From: Cyanidioschyzon merolae
Taxonomy: Eukaryota
Length of the DNA stretch: 64,000 nucleotides
Assembly: GCA_000091205.1 (NCBI GenBank)
Contig: AP006495.2
Reading direction: 5' to 3' (one strand)
This document shows positions 1-61,247 of the stretch, piece by piece. Position 1 is the first letter of the stretch, and each line of letters opens with the position of its first letter. The notes beneath the pieces were generated by a model. It did no database searches. It worked only from the letters and a program-made list of their open reading frames with translations, and was not told the origin of the DNA. The position numbers and the translations under genes are program-made.

Positions 1-220
1 GGATGAAGAAATCAAAGAGGCGGATCCTGCGACGCAGGAGGTGCATGAGAAGGGCCTCGTCGTTGACGCGGCGAAGCATGAAGATGAGAAGGAGGCGGAT
101 CCTGCGACACAGGAGGTGCATGACAAGGGCCTCGTCGTTGACGCGGCGAAGCATGAAGATGAGAAGGAGGCGGATCCCGCGACACAGGAGGTGCATGGCA
201 AGGGCCTCGTCGTTGGCACG
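1..220 (+). repeat. 75-bp tandem repeat array, about 3 units, truncated by the window start. In frame it encodes a 25-aa acidic unit [25 protein letters not shown]. It is a near-identical copy of the array at 24516-24815.
   Basis: Direct reading of the sequence: unit 'gaagatgagaaggaggcggatcctgcgacacaggaggtgcatgacaagggcctcgtcgttgacgcggcgaagcat' repeats head-to-tail. The ORF track shows the same 25-aa peptide reiterated. Confidence 0.9.
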
Positions 221-1040
221 GACCCTGGGAATACGAATATCATGACCATTGCAGCACCGAAGCGTGCGGTAGATGGCATTGACGGCAACTTACGTGAGAG
301 CGACTTGCGTCTGTTGAGGTTCTCAAGAACTAGATATTCTCGAGAATCCGGTATAATGAATGCGAGGAAGAAAATTGAGACACGGAATGCAGGAATGAAG
401 GATCACCTGGAAGCTTTGAGCGAGGTGACAAGCCGATGAGCGGACTTTGAAGCTTTTCTGAAATTCATGCAAGTTCGCGTTGCTCATTGGGATGCGCTGT
501 GGAAAGAGTACACCAAGCCCCGGTGGGCTCGATTGCGAATGAATCTACACTGTGGGAAGCGGCGCGCGTTCGCGAACTTTTTCAATCGGCTGAGCGCCCT
601 GAAGGAGAATGAAAGTCAGAGGCTCATAGTAGCTTATTGGGCTGGGCGCTGGATGACCCAAAAAGGAACGACGCCAGCCCCGACGACAAGAACGTACAAG
701 GAGTGCGCACACTGTTTCGTCACGATACCTGTAGATAAGTTCCGAACATCGTATACACGCCACGAGCTGGGGTGTACACTTCAGAGCGTCGAGAAAGGAA
801 AGTGCCAGCGGAGCCCTGGTGATATACAAACGTACGGACCGCTGACCGAAGAGCAAATGGAAAGAAGGGCGAAAGTTCGAGGATTGCTCGCATTAGAAAG
901 TACAACTACGAATGGCGAGAAACGCGTAGCGTTTGTGAATTGAGACTTGAACGCCGCATGCAGTGGAAGGAAATGTGCGGTGATGGAAAGAAGCTCCCAT
1001 CGTGGACAGGAGAGAACTTTGTGGGACACCCTCTCAATGT
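41..1040 (+). pseudogene. Degenerate TnpB/Fanzor-like (OMEGA-type RuvC nuclease) ORF, copy a. It is split over two frames, ORF 41-439 and ORF 467-943, followed by an in-frame TGA at 941-943 that interrupts the RuvC-III motif.
   Basis: RuvC-I-like '[13 protein letters not shown]' at 266-304. TnpB zinc-finger-like 'PAPTTRTYKECAHCF'. 'RVAFVN*DLNAACS' at 926-965 matches the TnpB/Cas12 RuvC-III consensus D-R-D-x-N-A-A-x-N-I except for the stop. The intact version 'NRDLNAVINIRRY' is present in paralog c. Confidence 0.5.
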
Positions 1041-1190
1041 GGAACTATATGAGACAAGATTGAAAGCATTCGTACATGGCCCGCCGAGAAAGCCTCCGAG
1101 GCGTCTGCACATCAGTTGGCATCGTCTTGTCTAGGGCGGGACACTCGCCACTACTGTACCACTGGCAGCAACGTTTTTCTTTTGAAAAGC
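220..1190 (+). mobile_element. Repeat-family copy a (Fanzor/TnpB-like element remnant). It is homologous to 24816-25797; identity is near-perfect up to ~1030 and then falls to roughly 70% before ending in a conserved block 'ggcagcaacgtttttcttttgaaa'.
   Basis: Direct comparison of the two loci in the sequence. Homology stops at ~1190 / ~25797, after which the flanks are unrelated. Confidence 0.55.
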
Positions 1191-1595
1191 GTTTGCTGTC
1201 GGGGCTTCTCAAGGCCGAGCGCCCGGTCAACGTCGCGCTAGGCTGAACTCACTGACCTACGAGAGACGCCTTCCTAGTGTTCGTCTCGGTGCCTGGCGTT
1301 TGCATGGAACTTTCTCGACAGTCTATATCTGTTTCCACACTTTTACGACTGTTTACGTAGCCTTGACTGGTAGGTATCGGTAGCAGACTAAAACGCGGGT
1401 AGACTTTCGGTGACCGAATAGCCAAAGCGAGTCTGTCCTGTGCTAGGACGCTGTTGCTCGGCAGTCTCTACGCGACATAAGCGTCCCACTTGGTGGTCGT
1501 TGCTGCTGTTATTGTCGTGGTGTTGTTCTTGTTGGTGTCGGAGGTGGTAACTGGATCCGTGTCTCAGAACATTCCTGCCTCGCGGGTGCCACGAA

Positions 1596-5990: not shown

Positions 5991-6319
5991 GACTGAAGCG
6001 ACTCGGAGTACGTTCACGTTCGAACGGGAGTCTTGGGCGAGGCTCCATGCATGCCGCGGCATCTGCAGTGCGAATCGCCGGCGGGCAGCGCGCGGCTGCG
6101 GCTCTGAAGAAGACCCTCGATCGTGGCGTGATCGATGAACATAGGATCCTGAACTACTCGCATTGTTCCAGATTACAAGGCTTTTCTGCGTTTTCTTTCG
6201 ATATACAGCCTGGATATTCCAACTGTGGCTACACGGAGCTTGAACCTTCAGGTGTAGATATAGGATTCCAGGTCTTTTTTTCGGGAGTGACCTTGTCGAC
6301 GTGTTGGTGCTGGGTTTCG

Positions 6320-7010
6320 TCAGATCAACGGAATCAAGATGATTCGCGATACCCTCGAACAAGCTTTCCTATAATAACGGGAATCATAATCCAATGTATA
6401 TGGACATGCCTCCGGTGCTCTGGTCTCCGCACTGCAGCACGCTCGAACCAAGTGCGCTTCAAGTTCTCGATCTCTCCGTTCCAAGCGACGCCAGGGCGCA
6501 GCGATTGACGCCGTCGGATGTACGAAGAAAAATGCTCCATATCGGCAGTTGAAGAATTGCTCACAAGCTTATGAAAAAATTCACTTATCATGCTGCGTCA
6601 GTGAATCGATCCCGTTCGGGAAACGATTTCCTATGCCTTTGCGGCGATCGACGAAACGTACTTCGACGCCTGCATGATACCTGTCACGGGATTTGCTCCC
6701 AAAGGCTCTCGTCTCTTCTGTTTCCATGAGAAAGCGTCTTGGACTCCGACTTGAGTCATCGCAGCGATCGCTTCTTGTGGAGCGTGCGTCACTGTTTTCC
6801 ACGAAGAAAGTGGATTCGTATCGACATTTCTCGACTTGTTCTCCAACCTTGATTCTTCTTTCGGTATCTGTTTCATCTTGGCCAACATCATGTTCCAGAA
6901 ATCATCTATCCGCTGAAAAACCATGAGCTCGTGTGTGCAGCTGACAGAGTACATGGCAAGCGGATCGCCCAAATCAGTACTGTGACCCATTGGTACGGCA
7001 CCTCGGGCAC
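6320..7010. repeat. Solo copy of the ~700-bp 'tail' segment of the dispersed repeat family. It is homologous to 13980-14650 downstream of Fanzor-like copy c.
   Basis: Shared blocks read in both places: 'caagatgattcgcga', 'cttcaRgttYtcgatctctcYgttYcaaggcgac..gcgcagcgattSRYgcc', 'gtcatcgcagcgatYgc', 'atcgcccaRaWcagtactgKtRSSS'. Confidence 0.6.
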
Positions 7011-7061
7011 GTAAGCGGAGGCGGGAATCGGGGAGTCTTCTGTGCCCGCCACGGGCATGCA

Positions 7062-7433
7062 GCGAGCGATGTGGCAAGCGCTCACACGGCATGAGGCAGC
7101 CTCCGGAGGACGTCAAGGCGGACACACAGGAAAGTTCCTGACCACACTCAAGTAGCGAGCGATGTGGCAAGAGCTCACACGGCATGAGGCAGCCTCCGGA
7201 GGACGTCAAGGCGGACACACAGGAAAGTTCCTGACCACACTCAAGTAGCGAGCGATGTGGCAAGAGCTCACACGGCATGAGGCAGCCTCCGGAGGACGTC
7301 AAGGCGGACACACAGGAAAGTTCCTGACCACACTCAAGTAGCGAGCGATGTGGCAAGCACTCACACGGCATGAGGCAGCCTCCGGAGGACGTCAAGGCGG
7401 ACACACAGGAAAGTTCCTGACCACACTCAAGTG
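7062..7433. repeat. 93-bp minisatellite, 4 tandem units.
   Basis: Unit 'gcgagcgatgtggcaagRgctcacacggcatgaggcagcctccggaggacgtcaaggcggacacacaggaaagttcctgaccacactcaagta' begins at 7062, 7155, 7248 and 7341. Units are contiguous with no spacers. Confidence 0.95.
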
Positions 7434-7898
7434 TCATCGCCGCGACAGGCGCACCGAGTGTCCATCCAAAGAAGCTTCAGTGAGCAAGCGCAACGTCGAT
7501 CGCAGCTTCCGCCTTTAGGTAAACAATGCGATAAAAAAGCAGCAGTCGGAAACAACGAGCATCGGCACGCTTTATCTGCTATGAGTGTCTATCGACAGTT
7601 GCTCATAGAGCTGGAGCCCCAGAAGAGACCGACGTTCCTAAAAGTTGGAGATAAGACGCGGGAAACCGTAGCAGTCGAAAAAAAGTTTCGCATACGCAGG
7701 TATTGAGGATAGCAAGAAGATGCCGCAAACACGAGGGCGTGCGTTCGGGTCCGAGGAACCCCCCCCCCCCGGTTCCAAGCCACGGCGCTGTGGATGTTCC
7801 AGGACGCTGCGCGTTGCGAGTCCGCTCTGCGAGCGCGCATTTTCCGTGTCCCAAGTATACAAATTCATATAGTTCTGTCCTGACATGTACTACACGGA

Positions 7899-12345: not shown

Positions 12346-12599
12346 CCGCTAGTTGCAGCTGTAGCAGCAGCGAATTCTGCAAGAAAAACAGCCTGCTGCG
12401 ACTTGTCGACGCGACGTACAGAGCCGGGCGTGTGGCTAGGGTCTCTCAAGTCGATGGGGTTCCATCCAGGTGCGGTGCATTGCAGCCGATCGACATCACC
12501 ATGCAATGTATTCTCTAGATGGTAGACGAATTGCCTGTAAGATATGTATGCTTTTCTGAATAGTGCACGGAGCACTGCATTTCTCTTTCAGGTCAGACG

Positions 12600-14650
12600 T
12601 AACGCTGTTCTGAGATGGACGAGGAACACCGAACGGAAAAAGGAGATACGTTCAGCGTCAAAAAAGGCGCTCTTGAAGTGAGCTTGCGGTCCATGGTAGA
12701 AAACGACCCAATGAGCAGTTTAGCGAAAGAAAAAGCGACGGTCGTAGCCGCCACGGGCGTCTCTGGCTCTCATCAGCTTGCTCGTATGGTTCCGAACACA
12801 CTCGGATAAAGTCGCAAGAAAGAGTCCGGGTTCACGCACGGCCATCTTGCATCGGAGTCGCAGCTATGACAAACAGTTCCTGGAACGTCGCGACGTGTAT
12901 GGAACACAGCGACATCGGTTTGTCTTTTTCAGTCGATGGGGCTTGCTCCGGACGAAACAGTCAGCGCTTGTTTGGGTATTCGCATAGCGGGGGCCCGTTA
13001 TACGTACGACCGATCTCGAAGAGAACGAGGATATCATTATCAGTTCTGGTTGTAGTGAATACAAGTTGCGGCCTTCGTTTCGCAAGTGGAGGACGCACAC
13101 ACACACACACATACACACATCAATGACTCCGTCAGCGCACTGAAGACCGTGTCCTGACGTCTGGCAACGTCCGTCTATTGGAGAACGTCGAATTTCGCCA
13201 TTCTCCCTACGTTCATGCTTTTGCCGATGCTGTCGGGATAGATCTGCATATCATTTCGCCGCAGGCTCCGTGGTTCAACCCCATCGAATCAGTATTTTTT
13301 ATGGTGAAACGGAATGATCGCTCCACTGGGCGAATAGCGGAAGCGTTCAGCACACGGTGACACACCCGGGCGCACGTCGTCTTTCTTGTGCAAGTCCTTC
13401 TCCAACCGGAAAGGTCGTCACCTAACGACATATACACGTGTATTCCATTTGAAGAAAGGAATATCCAAGGGAAAGGTATGGACGTGCGCGTCGAGGATCC
13501 TGGTGTGCCGTCATCACCAGGTAGAACAACAACCGAAAAACGAAGAAAATCCTCTTCTCGTCGATCATTGAGAGAGCGACGAAGAGCAGCTTACGACGAA
13601 GAAGAGGATGACCAGGAGAGATTGACGACAACAAACGTTTGCTCGACGTAACGATGACGAGACTGTAGTGGCAAAGCGAGCACGAGTTCGAGGACTCGCA
13701 GCAAAAGTGACTTTAGCCATCGTCAATGCACCCAGGGCGTTCGTGAACCGAGACTTGAACGCCGTCATCAATATCAGAAGATATGTGGTACTGAAGACGA
13801 AACCCGCGGAGCTGGCTTGATGTTATTTTATGGGGCAGCATCTCAGGCTCGAATTGTGCCTGGATGAATACTAGAACCGATAGAAGGCAGCCGGTCAAAA
13901 AATAGGCCGGGCGGCGTCTGCGAGTGAGTTTGTATTCACGCTCCATGGTCGTGAATCATTTCTCGTTCCACTGGCTTGTTGTTTTGAAGAATCAAGATGA
14001 TTCGCGACGCCCGCCAAAAAGGTGTATAACGTACCCCAAGTCACGAGCCAACGCTTACGCACGAGCCTCTACGCCTATCCATTCCATACATATGCAGTGG
14101 CCCAGTGATACATGCTTCAGGTTTTCGATCTCTCTGTTTCAAGGCGACTCGTGTGCGCAGCGATTCGTGCCACTGGTCTGAAGAGGAAACATAAAACGCG
14201 ATGCTTCCTTTTGACGACTCGTCCACAGGCAAATGCGGAACGGTCGCTGAACTTGTCAGGCCACGAAGCCGCTTCCGTGCGAAAGACCAATCCTGCTTTC
14301 GTTTCGAGCATAGGCGAAACGGCGCTTGACAACACCATGATAGCTCGCACAGCATAGACCGTGCGACGCCCTCATCTCTTCTGACTGCATGAAACTGGGA
14401 CTTCGACTCGGGCTTTCGTCATCGCAGCGATTGCGCCCAGTAGGGGAAGCGTAGAGAATTCGAGTTTGTTTGACTTTGTCTAGAGCCCGGATTTTCCTTT
14501 CGATCCTTGTTTCAGTATGAATGGGACTGCGCTCCACAAATCCATGATCCATTGGAACAGCATTCGCCTGCGTTTGCAGCGTACATCGTACTCGCTCATG
14601 GAATCGCCCAGAACACGCCAGTACTGGTAGGGTGCGGCATCGAGCGCGAA
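12600..14650 (+). mobile_element. Repeat-family copy c: decayed Fanzor/TnpB-like element with ~400 bp of degenerate N-terminal region, RuvC-I and RuvC-III motifs, plus a ~700-bp tail.
   Basis: The upstream region (12870-13180) is homologous to 35090-35400 of copy d ('ctgacgtctggcRacgtcc..ctattgga', 'cgRtttgtYtttYYcagtcgatgRg'). The tail is homologous to 6320-7010. Confidence 0.5.
13178..13790 (+). pseudogene. Fanzor/TnpB-like RuvC nuclease remnant, copy c. The RuvC-III motif is intact.
   Basis: 'FADAVGIDLHIISPQAPWFNPIESVFFMVKRNDRSTGRIAEA' (RuvC-I 'GIDL' at 13230-13250). '...RARVRGLAAKVTLAIVNAPRAFVNRDLNAVINIRRYVVLKTKP' at 13660-13800, where 'RDLNAVINI' is the D-x-NAA-x-NI RuvC-III motif. The two segments are in different frames and stop-interrupted. 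Confidence 0.55.
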
Positions 14651-19918: not shown

Positions 19919-21543
19919 CTATCAGTGGTCCAAAAGTCTTGTGCCAGAATATTCACTTTCAGAGGCGGTGAACGGCGCGCTTCTACAATCTCCAGGCTAT
20001 CGATGTGTCGAAGCCCTGTTGGTATGAATGCGAACAGGTCCACGAACTCGGGCGTTCACCGCCATGCTTCGGTCTGTTTCCGACATCAAGAACACCAGCG
20101 TTTGTGTGCTTTATCGGAGACTGGTTCGTGTTCGTCTCCCTTATCAACGGTTTTTACGTGGGTCGGTATCTGATACGCCTGCACTTCAGCGGTCAGCAGT
20201 CGAGGGATGGTGATGGTAGCGTTCCAATCCCGATGACGCTATTTCCAGCTGTTCTCTATGCATTGATCGCATAGGCAAGACGTAGCGGTCAGCGTCTCGC
20301 TTGCCGTGTGCATGTTTTTCAGTGCAGTGCATCGTTGTGTGCCTCACTGCGTTGACACTTGGGTGCTGTCGGGTGTTCCCAGATATTCATTGTGTCGCCG
20401 GCCCCGCGTTGTGCCGCCTTCGCGCAAAACGATGACGCACGCTCGACTAGAACAAGTGATAACACCGATGATGACTCAAGTCTGAGTGCAAGACTGTATC
20501 CGTTGCCAGACGAAGAGTCGAGCGCCTCGGAGTATTCATCACGTGATCGGTATGACGCTGCTGTTGGCGAATGCCGTTTCACCAGTAAACGCAAAGCGCG
20601 AAGTATTTTTCCTTCGAACGCCGGCGATTATTTGCAGCACAAATGTAAGTCAATGACGAGCATGTGCTTGTGATCGTGGCGCCAAATGACGATGTCAAGT
20701 AGATTCACTCGTGCATCCAGCTGAGCTTTTCTGGGTGCACTCACGGTCTGCCTTGGAAAAGAGCACTCGAAGACCCGAAGGATGCAAGCGACGGATAAGC
20801 GTGTAGGCTTGTAGGGAGCTGTTGGACTCGTGATATCGGTTAGTTTACAATCCCGCTTTTCTGAGGTTGCTGCACCTCATCTGAATTCCACTGCCTTCTA
20901 GCGTTCCAGCGGCTGATCATCCAAGCGCCGACTCCGAACGTACGACCGAGCCTCCTAGATCCGCTTTTGCATCCGCACTCCCATATGGATTTGCGTGGAA
21001 TGTCGAGTCTGTATATCTAAAACACCATCCGCAGAAAAAAAGAGAAGAGTCGCCGGACACGAAGAAAGCAAGCAGCGCAGAGTTTTAGCTTCACCTGAAA
21101 TGGGTATCGTGTACCGACGCGAGAGCGGTGCGTCCCGGGTACATCGGCTCAGGGGTATCGCATGCGGCACCGAATGTGTCCAGTACAGCGTACACCGAAG
21201 CGGTGATCGTTTCGTAAACGGAGTTGCCAAGCTCGCCAATATCCATGCAAACCCGCTATAATGAAGCGCTCGCGATATGCATACCACCACCCGAGGCAAC
21301 CAACGATAATGTGGACGCGCGTAGCAGGCTATCGCAACCTGCCGCAGAGCGACAGGGCATCTCGCGTCCCTTACAGCTGCTCATCGTGCTTGCGTTGCAT
21401 CCTGAATCGTTCAGACCGGCAATAACATTGTGGTGGCAGCGTTCAGGCCAACGCGTCACTGCCCCCAGCGCCCTAGTCCACGGCATCCAGCGATTCGCAT
21501 GGTCGAATGATGCGAACATCGAGGCGATGGTTGCAGACGCGCT

Positions 21544-22875: not shown

Positions 22876-23490
22876 GGACGTCGACTAGCGACCGAGGCAC
22901 ACAGACTCCCGGTACAACGCTAGCTCCAGATAATGTATGCCAGATTGCCTTATTGTAATTGACGTCGTCGTCGGTAGCGTTGTGGCTGCTGAAGCCATTT
23001 CTTCGATGAGAAGACGTTTGTATGGATCATGGATTCTAGATTGTGGGGTGGATATTGAAATCAATGCCAGTGCTCAATATGATTCGCTCTTACGCCAAGT
23101 TTCATGGTCTGTTCTCGGATATACTGGTAATTTCGTATGTTCTATCGTGCGCTGAGTACCTGCATTGCTGCATCCGCAATAGAGCCAATGCTGCTAGTGC
23201 GGATGCTGAATGGAGACAGAACGGTTTTGCCATATCCATGGGGGTATCGGATCGAGGAATGCTTCATTGAATACGGAATCGGGATTCGTCAACATTCTGG
23301 AAGCCTGGGAGATGTGCAGTTAGACCTACTGCCTGCAGCAGCGCGAAGCGATATACTAGGAGTGATCAACGACCAGGGTGATGCCCAGTCGCAGCATACC
23401 CGCTCCTAGTCCCAGAATAAAGCGCATTGCGAACGAGTTGCTCAGATCTAACCAAAGTACCTGTCACTGGGGCGGACATGAAGCGCAAGC

Positions 23491-24221
23491 TTGGGAACCT
23501 GTCTTCTTAAACATATCAAGGATCCGTACAGGGAAAAGTTGCGAGAGGCCATTAGGAACCGTGTCGACTCGTACTCCAAGAGTATTCTCAAGGCGTCGTC
23601 AGGACGGATGCATTTGGCGAGGGAGATGTATCGCGATGTGGCGCACATGGAAACGGTCGAGATTCCGGGCGAGTTCGTCAACAAGACGTTTTTTCGATAC
23701 CTGAAGCATGGTACAGCGGGAAGCGCGGAGGGAAAATGAGCGGAATCACGCCCTCCACGAAAAATACCCTTTACAGCATCAACGGTACTCGATACAAGGG
23801 TGACTGGGATATCTACGCATACGGGGCGATGAAGTGCGTCACGAACCTGAAGAATCATTTGACAATGAACGTCGAACGTTTCATGATACGCGCCGTGTTT
23901 GCACTTTACCCGGGCCAGTCTCGCAAAGGGATACGGGCGATTCTCAACGGCATAAGGAACGATCGCAAGCATGAACATGAGATCGAATTCGTCGACGAGA
24001 AGGCGTCAAACCAGAGCACGAATGAGGTCTTTGTCATCCGTGCGGTTATACAAGAGCACCGTGCGGCGCTGGCGCTGGTGAATCCAGCAGAAAAGATATC
24101 ACAGTTGAAAAAAGATAAGGAAAGATCCTATCGCCTTGTCCTGCGCTATTTTCTGTTTCTGGACCGAGAGCTCGAACGCAAGGTGGAAATGAAGAGTGAG
24201 AGAGATGGAAGTCTATCCTAA
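23491..24221 (+). other. Two consecutive ORFs in different frames (82 aa + 161 aa) immediately upstream of repeat copy b. They are of unknown function and may be part of the same element or an unrelated decayed gene.
   Basis: ORF track only ('...LVLRYFLFLDRELERKVEMKSERDGSLS'). Similarity to the region upstream of copy c is weak and unconvincing. Confidence 0.2.
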
Positions 24222-24433
24222 TGGGTAAGCGCTTCAACGTCGTTCCAATGCGCAACATCAAGTCACATTTTGTGAGTATCGACTCTGGCGTCTTTTGCAG
24301 CATCATGAGCGAGATCAGTCCTGAGTTCGATGTTAGCAGAGAGGACTTCACTGGCGAAAACCATGAGACGCACTGAAAGAATATCTTCGATTTCAAAAGT
24401 CTCAAAGTCAGAAAGCGAAATGTATCCACGGGG

Positions 24434-25640
24434 ATGATCGAAACCGATGGAGTAGCTTTGTGTGTACACTATCGGCGGTTGAAGATAAATCGTCCAGTTC
24501 CGCCCTCGGCCGCGCCCGTCACGAAGGATGAAGAAATCAAAGAGGCGGATCCTGCGACGCAGGAGGTGCATGACAAGGGCCTCGTCGTTGACGCGGTGAA
24601 GCATGAAGATGAGAAGGAGGCGGATCCTGCGACACAGGAGGTGCATGACAAGGGCCTCGTCGTTGACGCGGCGAAGCATGAAGATGAGAAGGAGGCGGAT
24701 CCCGCGACACAGGAGGTGCATGACAAGGGCCTCGTCGTTGACGCGGCGAAGCATGAAGATGAGAAGGAGGCGGATCCCGCGACGCAGGAGGTGCATGACA
24801 AGGGCCTCGTCGTTGGCACGGACCCTGAGAATACGAATATCATGACCATCGCAGCACCGAAGCGTGCGGTAGATGGCATTGACGGCAACTTACGTGAGAG
24901 CGACTTGCGTCTGTTGAGGTTCTCAAGAACTAGATATTCTCGAGAATCCGGTATAATGACTGCGAGGAAGAAAATTGAGACACGGAATGCAGGAATGAAG
25001 GATCACCTGGAAGCTTTGAGCGCGCTGACGACCCGATGAGCGGACTTTCAAGCTTTTATGAAATTCATGCAAGTTCGCGTTGCTCATTGGGATGCGCTGT
25101 GGAAAGAGTACACCAAGCCCCGGTGGGCTCGATTGCGAATGAATCTACACTGTGGGAAGCGGCGCGCGTTCGCGAACTTTTTCAATCGGCTGAGCGCCCT
25201 GAAGGGGAATGAAAGTCAGAGGCTCATAGTAGCTTATTGGGCTGGGCGCTGGATGACCCAAAAAGGAACGACGCCAGCCCCGACGACAAGAACGTACAAG
25301 GAGTGCGCACACTGTTTCGTCACGATACCTGTAGATAAGTTCCGAACATGGTATACACGCCACGAGCTGGGGTGTACACTTCAGAGAGTCGAGAAAGAAA
25401 AGTGCCAGCGGAGCCCTGGTGATATACAAACGTACGGAGCGCTGACGGAAGAGCAAATGGAAAGAAGGGCGAAAGTTCGAGGATTGCTCGCATTAGAAAG
25501 TACAACTACGAATGGCGAGAAACGCGTAGCGTTTGTGCATTGAGACTTGAACGCCGCATGCAGTGGAAGGATATGTGCGGTGATGGAAAGAAGCTCCCAT
25601 AGTGGACAGGAGAGAACTTTGTGGGACAATCACTAAAAGT
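24434..25640 (+). pseudogene. Degenerate TnpB/Fanzor-like ORF, copy b. ORF 24434-25039 and ORF 25058-25543 are followed by an in-frame TGA at 25541-25543 inside the RuvC-III motif ('VH*DLNAACS').
   Basis: Same motifs as copy a: '[13 protein letters not shown]' at 24866-24904, 'TRTYKECAHCF', 'RVAFVH*DLNAA'. Confidence 0.5.
24516..24815 (+). repeat. 75-bp tandem repeat array, about 4 units. It is coding-frame compatible and forms the N-terminal part of ORF 24434-25039.
   Basis: Same unit as 1-220. The ORF shows '[19 protein letters not shown][A/V]KHEDE' four times. Confidence 0.9.
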
Positions 25641-25797
25641 TGAACTATATGAGAAAACCATGGAAGCAGGAGTAGATGGCCGCTCCAAAAAGACGTGACA
25701 GAGTTTGCACCTCAGTCAGAGACTTCTTGTCTAGAGCGTATTTCTCGCCACTACTGCGTACTGCTGCCGGCAGCAACGTTTTTCTTTTGAAAGACGT
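24816..25797 (+). mobile_element. Repeat-family copy b body and 3' tail.
   Basis: Homology to 220-1190; the conserved terminal block is 'ggcagcaacgtttttcttttgaaa' at ~25772-25795. Confidence 0.55.
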
Positions 25798-26028
25798 TCG
25801 GTGTTTAGAAATCGCCGGCGCTGGCTCATCGGCTCTCTCCTGTGTCGTCTATTGACGCAAAGATTTGTGTTTTTTGTGCTTCCTAGCTTCGACGCTGAAG
25901 CGTTTGCGGCGTGCTCAGTGAACTTTGTACTCTGTTCACTGATCGGTAATCCGGGACGCGTTATACGACGCGCGCACTTAGCATTTATTGGCTACTTTTC
26001 GAGCTCAATCTTCCAAGCCTAAGTTTCA

Positions 26029-28953: not shown

Positions 28954-28994
<41 letters not shown>

Positions 28995-34733: not shown

Positions 34734-35029
34734 ATGCGCAAGGTGATGTCGATTCGTGTCAAACGCTGCGTCCTACGGCAGGGCGCGTGCCGCGCTGTTG
34801 GGCGGGCGATGGCGTTGCTGTGCAAAGGAATTCCTTTACGGCACAAGGGAAACGTGGATGCTGGCGCAGCGCCGTACCCTCGAGTCCGCTTCTTTGATTT
34901 CAACTCAATTTCGTTGCACCCTCGCTGTGGTGTACTAGCAGGCGATCGACCTCAGGATGCAATATACCGGATGGAATGTGGATGAGTTGCCTGTAGGATA
35001 GATTCTTTACTGAAGTGTGCATCGAGGAC

Positions 35030-35930
35030 TGCTTTCATTAATCAGGTCAGACATACCACAGTAATCAGACTTCTACCGAAATGGCAACTCCGGAATTCCG
35101 CGAACGTCGCTATCCAGATAAAGCACATGAACGTCGGTTTGTTTTCCCAGTCGATGAGACTTGCTTCGGACGAAGCGCTCGGAGCGTATATGGGTATGTC
35201 GGAAAGGATGCCCGTTGCACGTCCGAATGAACTCGAAGAGAACGATAGCATGATATATTCTGGGTGCAGGGGATTCATTTTGCGGCCTCAGGTTCGCTGG
35301 TAGTGGAGGCCCATGCAACAGCACCAATCACTTTGTCAAATCATTGCAGACTGGTGCCTGACGTCTGGCGACGTCCCCCTATTGGACGATGTGGTATTTG
35401 ACAATTCCGTTTGCGTTCGAGCTTTTGTGAATTTTATAGATGTCGAGCTGCTTCTCATTCCACAGTAGGTTCCGTGGTTCATCCCCATCGAAGGAGCGTT
35501 TCCTAATCGCCAAACGTAATGATCGCAAAACTGGGCGAATCGCTGAAGCGTCCCCCACACGTTTTTACTCCGAGGGCGCATTTCGTGTTTCTTCCACAAG
35601 TCCTCCTCGCTCCGGGATGGTGTGTACCTAAGAGTAGCAAGAAACGTGTTCATTTTTGAAGAAATACAATACCGAAGGAATGATCTGGGCTGTCCACTGT
35701 AGAAGGTCGAGATGGACCGAGGGCAGCGCATGGCTTCGGCGACAGAAAAATACGGAGCGATGACAGAGCACAAACTGGCATCAAGGTCTCGAGTTCGAGG
35801 ACTCGTTGCATTGGTGAGTCCCACCAGACGCAATAAACGCATGAAATTCATGACCCAACGCTTCAACGCTGCCATCAATACGACGAGATGTGTGGTACCG
35901 AAAAAGAGACCCACGGAGCTGAGGTGATCC
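35030..35930 (+). mobile_element. Repeat-family copy d: decayed Fanzor/TnpB-like element fragment between the SNF2 and starch-synthase genes.
   Basis: '...RFLIAKRNDRKTGRIAEASPTR' parallels 'VFFMVKRNDRSTGRIAEAFSTR' in copy c. ORF 35712-35927 'SRSRVRGLVALVSPTRRNKRMKFMTQRFNAAINTTRCVVPKK' carries a degenerate RuvC-III 'NAAIN' motif at 35861-35890. Upstream DNA is homologous to copy c. Confidence 0.45.
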
Positions 35931-36695
35931 AACTGAGTGGGAGCAGCTCTTCACCGATAGAATCGGCGAAGAGCTTCAACGCAACAGTAAGCGTAAATTA
36001 CCATGCAATCCAATGGAAGGACGTTGCCAGAAGCCGGAAAAAGTCTTCGATCATTCGACGAAATAGATCCTGTTGTATGAGCCTTATCTACGGGCCAGTA
36101 CTGAGGCCGCCAAATGAATCCACTGCAGCTAGATCAGAGGACGAAGAATACCTCGTTCCGATCGAGATCGATCGTCGATACAACGGGCGCCCTGCTCCTC
36201 GAATACCCATCTACAGTCCAACTATTTCGTCCGAGGCAAGCCGCACCAACTGAAGAAGAAAACCAACGTCCCTACACTGTGCACGGATCGCAACTTTCCA
36301 GTAAAGATGTCGTTGCTGTTTCGATGGAAATGGCCGTGATAGAACTAGAGTATTTTTCCGGACCGTATCCCAGTGTTCCCAGGATCACACGAACAAGCAG
36401 TAGAGCAGCAGAGACGCCCCCAGCTGCTACCAGGATCGCTTCTGCTTTCCCGAAACTATTCAACCGTGAACTTTTCTACCATTGATTTGAACCACGCTCT
36501 GACAAAACCAGCTTTTGAAGCGGTAAGCATCCAGCTCCTTCTTTCAGTATTCCTCATCCATCTGAGTACTACGGTACACCTGACGACCCCACGAAGGAAT
36601 GCAGTCCTCCTGGCACGATTCCGGAGAGCATCCATCCTACCGGCGATTTGTCTATAATCCAGAATCCGCATGACATAAGTGATGTCAATCGCCTG

Positions 36696-36728
<33 letters not shown>

Positions 36729-36815
36729 GGTGGAACGCAATTGACATGACAAGCGCCGACGCAGACGCGACGGACGGCAGAGAACGTCTGATGCACCACT
36801 CGTTTCGGTGCCCCG

Positions 36816-46202: not shown

Positions 46203-47442
46203 TCCCGAAACTCGTTACAGGCTCTGCGACAAAACACTGCAGCGACACCAAAGTGCAAAAGAGCGCGGTTCCGACCGCGGGCTTCGGCGACCGTTGACCA
46301 GCCAGCTACCAGCAACAAGCACCTGTGCTAGCACAGCTGTAACCCTCAACCAGGTCGTCGACGCACCTATACGATAAGGGGCTTTGTTCTGCGCACGAAG
46401 CCAGAATCCACGGCTCGCTCTCGTCGACGTCGTTCGTTCGACGCAGATGAGATCGAAGCGAAGTTGTCGGTAAAGTCATTGCTGCAGGGCTTGCTTGCCT
46501 TCGATCATGCCGATCCGTCGAGAAACGGTACAGAGAGCCATAATGGATATCAGGGGATGTGTGATTCCACGACAGCGCTCCACAGATATCTTCCTGTCAT
46601 GCGATATCCCTGGATTCGGGTAGATCATCGGGGGCTCTTATGCTTCTTGGATTCGCTGGAAATTCGAGTCGTGCGAATCTGTGATCGTCTGTGAACGACA
46701 CGCGAACATCACGCCAGGTGTCTATGGACGACGCACCGGCATTTCTGGAATGCTGAAAGACGGTGCATCCGTGGCAAGCTCCAGGCGTGAATCCAAGCGC
46801 TAGCTCCGGGTCACCGATGCTTTTTCTTGTCATCGCGGGTGGTCAGCGTTTCAGCGCAATGCGTAGTGCACTGAGTATTGGATGAATTCCTCGACGGTAT
46901 GCTCGACAAGAAGCCGATGGTCGCTGTGGAAGCACGACATATTTCCGGGTGTTGATCGAGGCATTCAGGTACAGGTGCCGAAACGATAACAGGCTTGCGA
47001 TGCCACCAGCATCGCAAGCCTATCACCGCCAATTGGTTACTCGATTTGACTGTCGCTCAGCTTACCGTATACCACGTGGTGCATCCAGCACTGTTTCACT
47101 GTATGCTTCTCTAACGCTTTCAGTGGGTGCCAGCACTCCTAATTCGTGAATGTTGTCGAGCAGTCATCAACGGGTATCGTGCAGTGTCGATGCCTATGCT
47201 CGGTGAACACGCGCGCTGCGAAGAAGCTGTGGTGCCGTCCCTGCGCGCTACCGAACGCCCAGTGCCATTGGCTGGCAACAAACCTCGTGACTTGTCTGTG
47301 CTTTGCTTTTTCAACGCGTTGCATATGACGGTGATTGCGCGCGTCTTGCCTTCGTACTACCGAAACCAGTGGAGATCCGAGCTCTGTCTCGTGTGCGCTT
47401 GATATTGATCGTTCGCAGCAGCCGTTTGGGTGCGTATTTGCG

Positions 47443-47832
47443 TTACGAATGAGTCGTCCAATGCATCCTCCTCTGTACGAGACGGTGCTCAGCGCGCTCG
47501 ATTAGGGTCATGTTGCGGTCTGTGCAGTCGTTCGAATGTCTCCTGATGTCTGCAATGCTCCACTCGCGATGAAACCGAGCTCCGAAAAACTCAGCAGCCC
47601 TTTCTGATTTTCGTTTGAGGTCTTTGGCTCCAGCTCTGACGCCAATCATCCGGGGATGCACGGTCATCACAACGCCCTTGAATTCATCTTCCATGAACGT
47701 CTGAACATGGGTGCCGTTGCTCGACTCAAATCTAGGCTTCACAAAGTGTGTGCAGATGGGTATGCCGCCGACCTCCATTGATGCTGCGAATGGCTTTCCA
47801 TTCCCTCGCTGGAAACGACGAACATGAACCAA
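47443..47832 (-). pseudogene. Possible relic of a retroviral-type (rve) integrase core, with catalytic residues mutated.
   Basis: 'QRGNGKPFAASMEVGGIPICTHFVKPRFESSNGTHVQTF' resembles the rve stretch 'sDNGkEF..f...gI.h..s.PysPqsNG.vER', but with D->G and E->Q. It lies in a 5-kb ORF-poor region. Confidence 0.2.
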
Positions 47833-50800
47833 GCACCTCCAATGCCCGTGGCAAACCTATTCAAATGCTTCATACTTGCTCGTTGACGTCAGCCGTAGCT
47901 CGCGGAGAAGCGCCACACCGAACAGATGCGTTTGTCGTGACATGCGCGGCATGTATTCGATACATGGGCAGTGCAGGGAATACCCGCTGGAGGAGGCTAG
48001 GGCGCTCGTTTACAGCGAGGAAATTCGCCATATGCATCGGACGGCTCTGTTCCGGGAAACGTAGTAGTTGCGCATGATGCGAGGAAGGCAGGCTTCCTGT
48101 CCCAAGCATCCCGGCTAGATGACCGCTGTCGGGCCGATGCTGAGAGCAGCACGTTGCCCTTGAAGGATGGCAGGGAGCTCTGGCTCGCGTTGCGACATAT
48201 CCGCAGAACTCGCAACCAACTCGAGCTCTTCTGCCTCCATCCGGCTCATCAGTTGCTTCCACTAGCACCAGGAGGATCCGTTCCATCCGTCATTATCGAT
48301 CTGGGCCAGTAAGGTGACTATACAACGCCCACAAGCTGTGCTTCTTGAAGTGCTCGACACGAACCCGCATGTGAATTTGGCTGTTGCGATTAGTTCGACG
48401 CTTTCTGAGACCAGCGCTGTAGATGCTCTGGTCGCCCCAGTCCAGCTGCGACGTGTCCAGGTACTCTCCGAAGCGCGTTGTGAACTCACTGATCCTACAA
48501 CCAGACCCTATGTCATATTCTCTATCCGGTGTATCGGAGTTGTTGTCGCACGAAGGTTTGATCCATCAATTCCTGATGAATGTTGATAGCTGGCAGCCCT
48601 GCGTCCCGGACTCGTATGAACAGCTGCTCGTCGAGGTACGGCAAGTCGGGTAATACTAGGTGAGCATTCCCAAAGCCAGAAGATAAGCGAAGTTGAATGG
48701 CGTCACGGATAGTTTTTGGATATGAAGCATATGCGCATCTGTCGAATGAATGCTTGTACATAAAAATTCCATTGGACATTGCAGAAGACGTCATGGACGG
48801 GATGGGTCCAAATCCCGGGGCCTCACACGAAAAGCAGCACAACGCCGATACCCGCTACGTGCTCTTTGGCAGCATATTTGTGACGAGGAGCGACATTGTC
48901 TCGGAGGCAGACCAGGGAATGCAGGAAGCCGAAGCCGCTAGTTGCGTTGACGATGCATGAGGTGTTTCATGATCCTTTCCGTATGGAGCATTGTTACCGA
49001 CTGCATGATTGCGTCTCCACTAGGGGTGAAGTTGTTGTGAGGATCGCTTCTCGCTTCGCTACGAGCAGTAGGCTGCCGCTCTGTAAGCACCCATGGACAG
49101 GTCGATCACTCCTCCCGAGTAGCGGTTCATAGCGCGAGACGAGCACCTGTTCCTCATGGGATGCGCAATCCTCTTTCAGGGCGAACCCGATAAAGTCTTG
49201 TCTAAAAAAGAATGGGACGGTCTCCCGTAGACAGGCGCGATTTTTTCGTTGCCCATCCGTGCCGCTTCATCCCCGTTCATATGCACCGTGCGAAAAACGT
49301 CACATACTGTGGTATCTCATGGAGTATCGCCCAGAGAGCATTCGGATTGCAACGGAATAACAAGAAAACAGCCTAGTAGATGGTGTCGGATTGGTTCTTT
49401 TCGGGTGCACGACGCTCGGAATGAAGGATACGAGAACGATCGGTCATCCAAGTGCTGAATTTTGAACGAGCGACCTGGACAAGCGAGGTGTTCTCTTCGC
49501 AGGCGAGCGGCGACAGCATTACGTATTTGCACAGCGCCTTCGTCAATGAAGAGAGGACATACCTTCTGCCAGATACCTGAGAAAAAAATCAAACATAAGC
49601 AAAAGAGCTTCCCATTAAAGATAGGCGGGAATGCGCTTCGATCTCTGCGGTTCGACCGGTCGATGCTTCATCTTCAAAATTACGAGATAAAAGAGCACAG
49701 CTAAGGTAGGCATAGGCCTGCAGCACCTAAGGGAGCGAAATGTTTCGCCTCTATAGAGTCTATATAGATATCTACCGACGCACAGGCGCATCCTAGTCGT
49801 TTTTGACCGGCACCTGTTATCGGTGTCAGTTGCTCTCCCAGCACACTTCGAGACCGAGAGGCTGCCGCATAGAGTTGTATCGCGTCAGCCCCTCGGGTCT
49901 CGTCTTCAACAACGCACATCGTCTGATCTGGATAGCAGCACTGAAGTCTCGGCTCACGGAAACCATGCGTTTAGTTGCCTCTGTTTGAACTCACAAGTGC
50001 CAGGCGTCCTCGAACGAGCGCCCTCTGTGTCACCACAGTCTCGTAATCATCCCGTCAGGCAAACACGTTTTCTCGTCTATCTCCAATCGACATCTTCTTC
50101 TTCTTCGTTGCTTGCTCTTCTGCGCCTGATTGTCGCCGAGAAGGAGATCTTCCACGTTCTTTCCTGGCAGCCGGCGAAACGGGGCCTCCAGGATCCGCCA
50201 CGCTCACTTCCATCACTTTATTTTGTTTTGAATATGAACCCGATGTCGAACGCGTCTGCCTTGAACCGCGAAGCATGACTTGAATACACGAGTGTGAAGG
50301 CTGAAGCACAGCCGACTTGCCGGACGATACGTTGCAATGACTTTAACGCAAATACAGCTCGGACGTCAGAGGAACCCGCTCATCATCATCGTGATCGCGT
50401 TTCTCCTCAACGGCGAGATACGCATCGCATCCCATGCCTGCCAGATTTGGAGGTGCGCGTATCGACCCCGCTATATAGAAAAAAGAACACAAACGAACAT
50501 CTAACTAGCAACGAGATAACGATTTCTTTCCACCGCTACGATCAAAGTCAAACAGAGGAAACGTTTTCCGTATTGTCGAAAGTTTACCTTCCAGACGAAA
50601 GGTCCCGCAAGCCGGACGAGTCGATCGGGCTCTCGCGCCATATTCCTCCGTAGGGGCGGGTGCTGTAATGAGACCTGAGCAACTCGTCGGCAACGCAGTT
50701 TATTCTGGGACTCGGAGCGGGTAGCCTGCGTCTGCGCGTCGCCCTGGTCGCAGTGGACTCCTAGCAGCTCGCTTCCCGCTGTCGCAGGCAGTGGATCTGT

Positions 50801-51243
50801 CAGCACATCTTCCATGCTTCCAGAATGCTGATGAATCTCGATTCCGTATTCACTGAATCATGCCGCAAGCGGACGCCCTCAGTAGTATCCCAAAGCGGCG
50901 CTGTCTCTGTGCTCCATCCGCACCATCTGTAGCGGTGCTATTGCGGGTGCTTACCGCGGGTACTAGATGCTCGACAGAACGTACGAAACTACAAGTACGT
51001 ACAGCAGAATGCATACGTAATGGGACTTGAAGAAAGGATCCAGCATCATGGACGTTTTGTCGATTACCAATACCCATCCCACAGTCGGGGATCCGCGGTC
51101 CATCGAGACGTACTGCCGAATCGCACCAATCAGCGCAATGATCTCCTTGACGCCCGGTATTCGAGCTCCTTCTCTACGATCAGGAAACGTACGCTTGCAG
51201 CGCTGCGTTGCGGTAGGCAGTAGAAGCACGGAGCTCGTTACAA

Positions 51244-60389: not shown

Positions 60390-60639
60390 GCTGTTACCGA
60401 TGATCGACTCTAAACCGTCTCAAATTATCCCATGATCGACTAGGTATGTACCAGAGCGTCTTGACGAATACCTCTTGTCGTGTTGAGGCACTGATCAACG
60501 AGCTTTCTCGTGCCTGCTGAGCTGCAGGTGCAGCGGCACTGGATTATCCACTGGGCGTGTCGTGCGTACCGTGTGTGTCGAGTCTGGTGGCGGCAACACG
60601 TGCGCTGCGTACGTCTTGCCGCGGAAGTGACGAAATGCC

Positions 60640-61175: not shown

Positions 61176-61247
61176 AACAATGCCGTCTCACACCCGAAAT
61201 CAATTCCGACCGCCTGGCTGCAGCTTGGCCTCGGACCGGGTCAGGAG

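Follow-up and report, generated by a model that had tools for sequence, protein, structure and literature searches.

The biochemistry and the structures of Fanzor have been in print since 2023; in TnpB elements, the guide RNA is believed to be encoded where the gene ends, on its 3′ side. Fanzor1 elements of Cyanidioschyzon merolae had already been catalogued in 2013 by Bao and Jurka (Mob DNA 4:12; PMC3627910); they reported some 150 copies of their CMe-1A element, with about 80% identity between each copy and the consensus, and gave its class as "unknown", with no mention of any transposase. The same study described mariner/Tc1–Fanzor1 composites, namely PUl-1 and PUl-2 of Pythium ultimum and PGv-1 of Phaeocystis globosa virus (Fig. 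3 of PMC3627910), and named a [TS][TS]-x-x-C4 zinc finger as a conserved Fanzor feature. In the rearranged RuvC-II site of these nucleases, Gly or Pro occupies the position of the canonical Glu, and an alternative conserved Glu lies tens of residues downstream (PMC10530073).

We have analyzed a 64,000-nt stretch of C. merolae contig AP006495.2 (hereafter the window). The reference sequences, the 3169-bp consensus of CMe-1A and its 734-aa protein CMe-1, come from the PMC3627910 supplements. A preliminary description of the window had joined five loci (a to e) into one decayed TnpB/Fanzor-type family, with positions 12600–14650 as the flagged region. What remains in this region is very probably an old copy, now dead, of a C. 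merolae DNA transposon of composite make-up, in which a DDE_3 transposase gene precedes an internally deleted Fanzor1 gene. The relics that had been flagged are real; they are dead and have been published before. What is new is the DDE_3–Fanzor1 arrangement, a small addition.

Composite structure of locus c

The features are collected in Table 1. The 5′ and 3′ limits of locus c were set by multi-copy alignments; the locus is collinear at 65–70% with at least eight copies on Cyanidioschyzon-like metagenome contigs and with locus d, and a c-type family consensus was rebuilt from the copies. The first gene is a transposase pseudogene, and PF13358 (DDE_3; cut-off 28.6 bits) matches the translation of locus c with E 9.7e-8 (32.4 bits) and that of the c-type consensus with E 5.8e-17 (62.3 bits). 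The acidic triad of the consensus is in the motifs VDETCF, LLLDNVVFHHS and NPIEGVF; in locus c the first two acidic residues have been mutated (SVDGAC, LLENVEF), the NPIE motif is found at 13274–13297, and frameshifts, stops and a (CA)n microsatellite (13096–13120) interrupt the gene. The "GIDL" of locus c (13229–13255), formerly read as RuvC-I, lies inside this above-cut-off DDE_3 remnant.

Table 1. Positions of Fanzor1-related and neighboring features in the window
Feature	Position	Strand	Basis
Copy a: CMe-1A 3′ part, truncated by window start	1..1193	+	84.4% to consensus 2117–3169
Copy a RuvC-I, VVGTDPGNTN	209–238	+	motif location
Copy a alternative-Glu site, VDKF	within 728–748	+	alignment and motif location
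Copy a RuvC-III with in-frame stop, VN*DLNAACS	935–964	+	motif location
Locus c: decayed c-type copy of about 1.5 kb, DDE_3 gene then internally deleted Fanzor1 gene	12448..13973	+	multi-copy homology
Locus c DDE_3 (IS630/Tc1-mariner type) transposase pseudogene	12615..13360	+	Pfam PF13358
Locus c Fanzor1 ORF start remnant, MDVRVEDPGVPSSPG... (compare CMe-1 MEKEVEDPGGPVSPA...), up to deletion junction	13478..13650	+	alignment
Locus c Fanzor1 C-terminal tail (CMe-1 residues ~640–706), premature TGA at end	13659..13856	+	tblastn, hmmsearch, blastn
Locus c RuvC-III motif, VNRDLNAVINIRRY	13743–13784	+	motif location
Fragment of unrelated dispersed repeat 3′ of locus c, same family as locus e (6300–7080)	14114..14434	+	collinear matches
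Copy b: CMe-1A element reaching both consensus ends	23004..25798	+	blastn and base-level alignment
Copy b RuvC-I	24809–24838	+	motif location
Copy b VDKF site	within 25328–25348	+	motif location
Copy b RuvC-III, VH*DLNAACS	25535–25564	+	motif location
Locus d1: c-type copy	34938..35960	+	homology to locus c and CMe-1
Locus d1 DDE_3 remnant	35096–35562	+	homology
Locus d1 Fanzor1 tail, QRFNAAINTTRC at 35856–35891	35670–35951	+	homology
Locus d2: 5′ part of second c-type copy, inverted, tail-to-tail with d1	36104..36696	−	c 12482–13074 = 36696–36104 at 66%
Relic g: very old Fanzor1 pseudogene, near full length, overlooked earlier	46894..48493	−	hmmsearch
Relic f, overlooked earlier	49800..51111	−	blastn, hmmsearch

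The second gene consists of the start and the tail of a Fanzor1 gene, so that loci c and d hold a DDE_3 remnant followed by these two pieces instead of the ordered RuvC architecture previously assigned to them. The c-type consensus matches CMe-1A solely at 869–969 and 2840–3084, at 79% and with nothing between, and the first of these matches (c-type consensus 979–1085) reaches 79.6%. In hmmsearch, two family profiles recovered the tail of locus c (E 1e-12 and 2e-8), whose RuvC-III motif reads NRDLNAVINIRRY, and blastn aligned it to CMe-1A 2849–3093 (67%). Loci c and d are about 70% identical (12912–13415 with 35131–35621; 13683–13814 with 35790–35921), and a tblastn search that used the transposase of the c-type as query also found d2 (E 2e-26).

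That the RuvC-III-like motifs of c and d arose by chance in decayed noncoding DNA, with a and b as the sole real relics, could be argued from the shortness of the tails (65–95 codons), from the lost catalytic Asp of the d motif QRFNAAINTTRC (QRFNAA) and from the lack of a Pfam match to the tails. Against it, tblastn with CMe-1 finds the tails with E 1e-21 (d) and 5e-11 (c, 49% identity), their DNA is 67–72% similar to the CMe-1A consensus across about 245 nt, and the c-type consensus translates to ...RARVRGILALVSSTSGNKRMEFVNRDFNAAINIRRCVVLKTRPAELTRSNFVGQPL..., which is almost the CMe-1 sequence; we therefore give the chance origin practically no probability. The RuvC-III-type motifs of a, b, c and d are indeed present where they had been placed, and they align to NRDFNAAINIRRC of CMe-1.

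The architecture of locus c recurs collinearly in metagenome copies (L058, L064, L019, L074/L078, L080, L054/L056 and L018), and the junction region is collinear across locus c, L058, L064, L054/L056, L018 and relic f. This recurrence bears on whether locus c is an accidental nest, in which an independent DDE_3 (mariner-like) transposon came to lie beside or inside an old Fanzor1 element and the two were never one mobile unit. No TIRs surround the c-type unit, relics of several transposable element families are clustered in the window, and locus d, where two c-type pieces lie tail-to-tail, indicates that rearrangements do happen here. However, the DDE_3 gene, the Fanzor1 start, the junction and the tail recur with the same order and spacing in c, in d1 and in at least eight copies on different metagenome contigs, and these copies have the same 5′ and 3′ limits, while a nest formed by chance would not have been copied whole with common ends. 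We consider the nest quite improbable and prefer a composite element.

Such a composite resembles PUl-1, PUl-2 and PGv-1, where a Tc1/mariner DDE transposase likewise lies upstream and Fanzor1 downstream on one strand. It differs from them in the internal deletion of the Fanzor1 gene in c and d. PUl-1 has 24-bp TIRs and TA duplications; around c and d only short TIR pairs of chance quality were detected, and no 3′ end among the multiple copies compared carries the c-type 5′ end in reverse complement. TA lies directly at the 5′ end in about five of eight copies, and at the 3′ end the figure is about three of eight, which is suggestive of a TA target duplication. DDE_3 may have mobilized the c-type unit, although no TIRs were found and a TA duplication is only suggested.

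Copies a and b and the CMe-1A family

We assign copies a and b to CMe-1A, a published and younger family with a full Fanzor1 ORF and no DDE_3 gene. Homology to the consensus covers 1–494 and 1075–3169, with both termini, in copy b and 2117–3169 in copy a; over the ORF and the 3′ end, both are about 84% identical to it in nucleotides, in keeping with the figure of about 80% reported for the family, and they are 73–79% identical to CMe-1 in amino acids. In blastn, copy b matches consensus 1–494 at 76% and both 1075–2196 and 2117–3169 at 84%; it extends well beyond the 24434–25797 previously given. The one internal gap in this otherwise end-to-end match is a deletion of consensus 495–1071, because of which copy b has no ATG, and an identical deletion is found in metagenome copies. 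Base-level alignment of copy b also revealed three in-frame stops and several frameshifts, and TRF a tandem repeat (75 bp x 3.7 copies) at 24542–24815.

DNA identity between the two copies is 93% (a 1–1191, b 24603–25804). We have rejected a segmental duplication as the origin of this likeness, which stops within about 8 bp of the element 3′ end. Two premature stops, a 1-nt deletion and a Lys in place of the alternative catalytic Glu are common to both, and a and b accordingly descend from a source element that was already defective. Their youth had been taken as a sign of an active family, which is a weak argument when both were copied from a dead source.

Loci c and d belong to a different and older family, whose Fanzor1 gene is reduced to about 55 codons at its beginning and ~100 at its end. 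Because their matches to CMe-1A are limited to 869–969 and ~2737–3093 (67–79%), we regard them as relatives of CMe-1A and not as members. The Fanzor1 tails in loci c and d and in relic f come from the same gene lineage as CMe-1A (67–72% nt), but where CMe-1A has its 5′ 868 bp, c and d have the DDE_3 remnant, and most of their Fanzor1 ORF is deleted. We also considered whether the 868 bp might be a decayed DDE_3 gene and rejected this, as no similarity was found. The proposed kinship of the five loci therefore stands for the pairs a/b and c/d and fails for the five as one family, since a/b and c/d overlap just in the last 65–95 Fanzor1 codons, at about 50% amino acid identity.

Locus e, formerly described as a solo tail of the family at 6320–7010, is a separate dispersed repeat. 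It matches the fragment 3′ of locus c (6456–6506 with 14114–14165; 6705–6771 with 14368–14434) and gives about 30 further matches to metagenome loci, and blastn found no match between this repeat, at either place, and the CMe-1A consensus. The 14114–14434 fragment falls within the flagged region and yet lies outside the Fanzor1 element.

Assignment of the lineage to Fanzor1

Judged from their sequences, a and b are decayed Fanzor1 genes, Fanzor1 being a eukaryotic TnpB homologue; the Fanzor-type identity given in the preliminary description has thus been borne out, first of all by near-identity to CMe-1A. In hhalign, the CMe-1 family matches chlorophyte and oomycete Fanzor1 with a probability of 99.3% (E 7e-21), and the GxDPG, AYGxG, VDEFRTS and NRDxNAAxN motifs all line up. 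A profile of 79 diverse relatives finds the Fanzor1 structures 9CF0 (E 3e-22), 8GKH (2e-14) and 9CER (2e-6) in PDB; these matches needed distant relatives from a search of 1.84 billion proteins, and neither phmmer with copy b nor a profile of 25 close relatives found anything in PDB. For the AlphaFold2 model of the family member P0012 (pLDDT 84.7, pTM 0.80), Foldseek places SpuFz 9CEY (E 2e-13) and 8GKH (6e-12) first, followed by PpFz, GtFz, Cas12 and TnpB; each of the top seven PDB matches is a Fanzor1 structure, with E from 2e-13 to 4e-9 and TM at most 0.63. The fold predicted is therefore that of the solved Fanzor1 proteins SpuFz1 (8GKH, 9CEU–9CEZ), PpFz1 (9CF0–9CF3) and GtFz1 (9CER–9CET), with TM 0.61–0.63 to SpuFz, although sequence identity to CMe-1 is just 13–17%.

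The solved proteins and CMe-1 have in common GxDPG, Gly at the RuvC-II Glu position, the alternative Glu in (V/I)DE(F/Y)(R/K)TS, and NRDxxA. The RuvC-I Asp lies in VVGADPGNTN of the CMe-1 consensus, and D314 is invariant in the 79-sequence alignment; RuvC-I is present in a and b and absent from c, d and f, in which that part of the gene is deleted. The "GIDG" of a and b (272–292, 24872–24892) had been taken for RuvC-I, which actually lies 15 residues earlier. RuvC-II, rearranged in the way described in PMC10530073, reads AYGAGRW...(~33 aa)...VDEFRTS, with G453 and E486 invariant in alignment A3, and in a and b the alternative Glu has become Lys. RuvC-III (RDxNAAxN) is near the C-terminus, a stop replacing its Arg in a and b.

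As for the C4 zinc finger, the TS pair is there (RTSYTHHELGC), and the CxxC...CxxC cysteines are missing from both the CMe-1 consensus and the consensus of the 79 relatives. The "TYKECAHCF" formerly read as a zinc-finger remnant aligns with the helix ahead of the VDEFRTS strand and is no zinc finger. SpuFz and PpFz keep the Cys pairs, in contrast to the CMe-1 clade; Volvox VCa-1 of the published set likewise has no zinc-finger cysteines, and the missing finger looks like a clade trait rather than a ground for exclusion.

The Pfam search that had been proposed as a refutation check (OrfB_IS605, OrfB_Zn_ribbon), together with TnpB and Cas12 models, gave no match for frame-corrected b, c and d or even for near-intact relatives, the sole match being DDE_3 on locus c. 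Since the test is too insensitive for near-intact relatives, the missing OrfB match is no refutation. The relatives bear the precomputed label PF26935 (DUF8286).

CMe-1 and TnpB (e.g., ISDra2 TnpB, 8H1J) have a homologous RuvC nuclease core, and the P0012 model has a partial Foldseek match to 8H1J (E 0.013, 275 columns). Fanzor and TnpB being homologous, one could take the family for a prokaryotic TnpB (IS200/IS605 or IS607) present through contamination or recent horizontal transfer. This is hardly credible, because eukaryotic Fanzor1 gives the best structure and profile matches by many orders of magnitude, the named relatives are the green algae Tetrabaena and Haematococcus, and the long Fanzor1 N-terminal region is present. 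CMe-1, at 734 aa against ~400 aa, is about twice as long as TnpB, and it is nuclear and eukaryotic, with no adjoining TnpA (Y1 or serine) and no OrfB match. The copies, moreover, sit on a single chromosome among exact C. merolae nuclear genes, four window ORFs being exact matches to the C. merolae 10D proteins BAM81128, BAM81137, BAM81139 and BAM81141.

Relics f and g and the 3′ region

In relic f, the CMe-1A 5′ region (consensus 11–964 at 50155–51111, blastn 78%) runs directly into a Fanzor1 start and tail with the internal deletion seen in locus c (c 13536–13901 = 50161–49800 at 69%). Its RuvC-III motif, SRDFSAAIQIRRC, is at 49916–49954, and hmmsearch with family profiles gave E 1.5e-11. Relic g is an ancient pseudogene collinear with the family profile, at A3 positions 114–158, 196–407 (E 1e-9) and 573–597 and at A1 positions 415–521. 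On the same strand upstream of g, a candidate DDE_3 trace (48766–48933) is kept as tentative because it has just a tblastn match (E 0.002) and no Pfam match; with it, relic g probably has the same DDE_3-then-Fanzor1 order. Relics of transposable elements from several families crowd into this window.

The true CMe-1A 3′ end in most copies is ...GAAAGGCGTT, 2 bases past the published consensus. Two sequence variants of a terminal hairpin occur there, and this end also allows a long-range helix to be drawn. RNAalifold on this end gave no consensus structure and no pairs, and for 45 proposed pairs, 80.7% of cells pair as against 80.1% in shuffles, with a covariation score matched by 43 of 500 shuffles. 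Because RNAalifold gave no pairs and the consensus-built structure did not beat the shuffles, we claim no omega RNA. Rfam and tRNA scans over the whole window gave no match.

Proposed history and implications

In the original element, as the alignments document, a Fanzor1 gene stood downstream of a DDE_3 gene and on its strand. In the lineage leading to locus c, an internal deletion took out Fanzor1 codons ~56–638, leaving the gene start, the last ~100 codons and the element 3′ end, and the shortened element then spread, the junction being common to c, d1/d2 and several metagenome copies. From what is known of the two protein families, the DDE_3 enzyme would have moved the live element by cut-and-paste, and Fanzor1 would have acted as a DNA endonuclease guided by an RNA that the 3′ end of its own gene encoded; RNA-guided cleavage by a live Fanzor1 is thus a prediction from the families. 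All Fanzor1-related copies in the window are now pseudogenes, with stops and frameshifts catalogued among them, and no nuclease or transposase can be produced from them.

The last ~100 Fanzor1 codons with the 3′ end form the sole module common to full-length CMe-1A, c-type elements and the chimeric relic f. This module might have been retained as a guide-RNA gene and cis-acting right end, the c-type elements being nuclease-less mariner-like carriers that use the CMe-1A Fanzor1 in trans, and the clade might be a Fanzor1 lineage of a thermoacidophilic alga that naturally does without the zinc finger; we offer this as a speculation that is unlikely to hold.

Taken alone, the finding carries little weight, and we draw only modest points from it. 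Pfam OrfB models overlook the CMe-1 clade entirely, and scans relying on them would wrongly discard true Fanzor relics. The clade, including its green-algal relatives, has no canonical zinc finger and is still predicted to have the Fanzor1 fold. Finally, the C. merolae Fanzor1 lineage, whose class was "unknown", is now physically linked to DDE_3, as in the oomycete and algal-virus elements.

Repeat families of the window

Self-comparison of the window separated three kinds of repeats, rather than the single family of five loci (a to e) proposed in the preliminary description. Loci a (1-1191) and b (24603-25804) are 93% identical. Locus c resembles d at about 70% (12912-13415 with 35131-35621; 13683-13814 with 35790-35921), and c 12482-13074 has a further homologous counterpart, in inverted orientation, in d2. 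Between locus e (6320-7010) and the DNA flanking c on its 3' side, similarity is confined to short segments, 6456-6506 matching 14114-14165 and 6705-6771 matching 14368-14434. Repeats of this last kind gave about 30 matches at 65-73% identity in fetched metagenome loci, and no relationship to the consensus of the Fanzor1 element described below was found; by sequence comparison e is assigned to a separate dispersed repeat (e-type) outside the Fanzor families. Relics derived from Fanzor1 number at least six in the window and fall into three ages; two of them (f and g) are additional to the loci listed previously.

The window has long, mostly unbroken ORFs and a G+C content of about 55%. Four ORFs are identical over their full length to Cyanidioschyzon merolae strain 10D proteins (BAM81128; BAM81137, a BRAHMA-type SNF2 ATPase; BAM81139, GatA; BAM81141, an RNA polymerase III subunit), which are encoded together on a single record of 866,983 bp, so the eukaryotic nuclear genome in question is that of this red alga. 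Tandem repeats were also observed: a minus-strand ORF (6631-7437) encodes the same 31-aa block several times over, through four near-identical copies (98%) of a 93-bp unit, and a 96-bp unit recurs 5.7 times (96% matches) in the spacer that separates the ribonucleotide reductase ORF from the one next to it. A self-match between CAG/CAA (poly-Gln) coding repeats of two unrelated genes was rejected as a repeat family, being low-complexity similarity.

Features located in the window
Feature	Coordinates	Strand	Remark
Copy b	23004-25798		real extent
RuvC-I in a	209-238		VVGTDP(G/E)NTN
RuvC-I in b	24809-24838		VVGTDP(G/E)NTN
3' end of a	1170-1193		end also in loci L003-L083
3' end of b	25775-25798		end also in loci L003-L083
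75-bp tandem repeat	17-215; 24542-24815		within Fanzor1 ORF
c-type limits in c	~12448 to ~13973		
(CA)n run	13096-13120		interrupts transposase of c
d1	34938-35960	+	c-type piece
d2	36104-36696	-	c-type piece
Relic f	49800-51111	-	chimeric
Relic g	46894-48493	-	very old, near-full-length Fanzor1 pseudogene
DDE_3-like trace	48766-48933	-	upstream of g
e-type repeat	6300-7080		locus e
e-type repeat	14114-14434		inside interval first given for c
e-type repeat	20418-20527	-	
e-type repeat	43646-43760	-	
e-type repeat	55056-55178		
93-bp tandem unit	7061-7432		
96-bp tandem unit	60635-61176		
Poly-Gln repeats	28930-28989; 36693-36749		low complexity

Copies of a published Fanzor1 family

Fanzor proteins were defined by Bao and Jurka (2013), who described one Fanzor1 family in C. 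merolae, CMe-1A, with a consensus of about 3 kb and some 150 copies, individually at around 80% identity to it, without TIRs and of unknown class (PMC3627910). We aligned its consensus (3169 bp) and its protein CMe-1 (734 aa), both from the supplements of that paper, to the window. The match to copy b takes in both ends of the consensus (1-494 at 76% and 1075-3169 at 84%), which sets the real extent of b, and a, truncated by the window start, corresponds to 2117-3169 at 84%; the two copies can thus be assigned to this published family. The frame-corrected b translation, used as a query against protein sequences, retrieved more than 200 close relatives at 60-75% identity, all metagenomic, whose sole Pfam annotation is DUF8286; none of the 120 hits listed of 206 was in the annotated C. 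merolae proteome. The CMe-1-like proteins P0001-P0120 carry no precomputed annotation other than DUF8286 (PF26935), a new Pfam family whose hits in loci L001-L003 are flagged weak; the domain seems to belong to a Fanzor1 protein.

The earlier proposal of a decayed Fanzor-type nuclease is upheld by profile-profile comparison, by profile matches to solved structures and by a predicted structure. Pfam OrfB_IS605 and OrfB_Zn_ribbon, the check first suggested, gave no match even with near-intact relatives, and single-sequence and shallow-profile searches of PDB matched nothing. The CMe-1 family profile aligned with six Fanzor1 proteins of green algae and an oomycete (probability 99.3%, E 7e-21), with TDGV, GxDPG, AYGxG, VDEFRTS and NRDxNAAxN in register. 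An exhaustive HMM search gave 1452 cluster representatives, and a profile of 79 of them matches the solved Fanzor1 proteins of Parasitella (9CF0, E 3e-22), Spizellomyces (8GKH, E 2e-14) and Guillardia (9CER, E 2e-6). An AlphaFold2 model of the family member P0012 (pLDDT 84.7, pTM 0.80) has Fanzor1 structures as all of its top seven PDB matches (TM up to 0.63, E down to 2e-13), with Cas12 and TnpB far behind. Profiles and model together identify the CMe-1 family as Fanzor1.

Like other Fanzors, CMe-1 has a rearranged RuvC catalytic pattern (PMC10530073): GADPG and NRDFNAA each supply an Asp, the canonical RuvC-II position is occupied by Gly (AYGAG), and VDEFRTS provides the alternative Glu. D314, G453 and E486 are invariant in all 79 relatives, and D555 is kept in at least 90% (alignment A3). 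The C4 zinc finger (CxxC...CxxC) is a classical Fanzor feature, whereas it was found neither in the CMe-1 consensus (TSYTHHELGC..., without a second CxxC) nor in the consensus of the wider clade of 79 relatives, for which a Fanzor1 fold is predicted. The two database-named relatives come from the green algae Tetrabaena and Haematococcus and are hypothetical proteins; in A3 the zinc-finger-less clade takes in proteins of T. socialis and H. lacustris. Directly ahead of RuvC-I, the ORF contains a 75-bp (25-aa) tandem repeat, in the segment predicted to be disordered in the model (P0012 residues 259-288). Its unit number varies: a has at least 2.7, b 3.7, metagenome copies (L005, L010, L002) three to five, and the published consensus a single one.

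Several motif readings have to be changed. The RuvC-III-like peptides are present where first reported; the 'GIDG' taken as RuvC-I of a and b lies 15 residues downstream of the true motif, and 'TYKECAHCF', read as a zinc-finger remnant, aligns with the helix ahead of the VDEFRTS strand.

A composite transposase and Fanzor1 element

The 'GIDL' of c, also read as RuvC-I, lies in a DDE_3 transposase region: its surroundings read ...HAFADAVGIDLHIISPQAPWFNPIESVFFMVKR, the C-terminal signature of IS630/Tc1-mariner transposases, and Pfam DDE_3 matches c itself above the curated cut-off (E 1e-7). Comparison of c with the 80 metagenome loci retrieved by the Fanzor profile placed it in a repeat family (c-type) some 1.5 kb long, with at least eight collinear copies 65-70% identical to c and common 5' and 3' limits; beyond the 3' limit, the interval first given for c is not Fanzor-related and holds an e-type fragment. 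A majority consensus of 11 copies restored much coding sequence. It encodes a transposase, ...FSVDETCF...LLLDNVVFHHS...PPYAPWFNPIEGVFS... (DDE_3, E 6e-17, 62 bits), followed by ...AAAAAATAAAAAATCCAAGGGAAAGGTATGGACATGCAAGTCGAGGATCCTGGAGGGCCG..., the promoter-proximal stretch and beginning of the Fanzor1 ORF (MDMQVEDPGGPSSPG, against MEKEVEDPGGPVSPA in CMe-1). About 55 codons after this start it passes straight into ...RARVRGILALVSSTSGNKRMEFVNRDFNAAINIRRCVVLKTRPAELTRSNFVGQPL..., the last ~100 Fanzor1 residues. Against CMe-1A DNA, the consensus matches 869-969 at 80% and 2840-3084 at 79%; between these blocks a short, weak match (983-1007) is all that remains, and its first ~970 bp are unrelated to the CMe-1A 5' region. 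From this structure c is identified as a decayed internal-deletion derivative of a composite element, a DDE_3 transposase gene followed by a Fanzor1 gene, the same order that Bao and Jurka drew for PUl-1 and PGv-1.

The deletion junction is common to c, L058, L064, L054/L056, L018 and relic f, so the deletion arose a single time and the shortened unit multiplied afterwards. Locus d consists of two c-type pieces placed tail-to-tail. In f, the CMe-1A 5' region (consensus 11-964, 78%) is fused directly to the deleted start-plus-tail with the junction of c. Relic g is a Fanzor1 pseudogene of much greater age whose segments align in order to the family profile (central block E 1e-9); upstream of it is a faint DDE_3-like trace (tblastn E 0.002), on which Pfam gave no match, and g may represent the ancestral full-length composite.

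Decay and activity

Every copy in the window is a pseudogene. In c, stops and frameshifts disrupt both the transposase and the Fanzor1 frame. Copies a and b have in common two premature stops (TSR*ADF, and TGA in place of the NRD Arg) and the loss of one nucleotide near consensus position 2963; both also read Tyr-Trp for Tyr-Gly and have Lys in place of the alternative catalytic Glu (VDKF). These common disabling changes indicate a progenitor that was already defective, and they weaken the suggestion that young copies attest recent activity; any mobilisation of a and b, if it occurred at all, would have been in trans. Their similarity stops within about 8 bp of the element 3' end, and a segmental duplication was rejected on this ground. 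Copy b also misses consensus 495-1071, including the ATG, as do metagenome copies L006, L007, L032 and L058. The longest open frame among environmental relatives (L005, 772 codons) spans residues 133-731 of CMe-1 and retains the full D-E-D set, so related populations do hold near-intact copies.

The 3' end

In most copies CMe-1A ends with ...GAAAGGCGTT, two bases past the published consensus. Two variants of a terminal hairpin, CGTTTTTC-TTTT-GAAAGGCG and CGTCGTTCGA-CTT-TCGAACGGCG, both pair, and a long-range helix of CAGTAGT.GGTG with CGCCACTACTG can be drawn. Tests of this folding gave it no statistical support. RNAalifold found no consensus structure in a 42-sequence alignment. Pairing in the consensus-derived structure (80.7%) was not above that in controls (80.1%), its covariation score was reached in 43 of 500 shuffles, and Rfam gave no match. 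By analogy with known Fanzor and TnpB systems, an omega-type RNA would be expected at this position.

Implications

The assignment to Fanzor made at the outset was right, while several particulars were wrong, and the C. merolae family itself has been known since 2013 (PMC3627910). Minor additions are the tie of the CMe-1 lineage to a DDE_3 transposase, a clade without the zinc finger, 2 bp at the CMe-1A 3' end, and relics f and g. Behind the homology, domain identity and relic architectures documented here, all in pseudogene copies, the families point to a live ancestor that would have moved through DDE_3 cut-and-paste, its Fanzor1 probably acting as an RNA-guided endonuclease with a guide encoded 3'. 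The Fanzor1 tail is kept in every derivative (CMe-1A, c-type and f), so the 3' module could, speculatively, be a cis-required end or a guide-RNA cassette.
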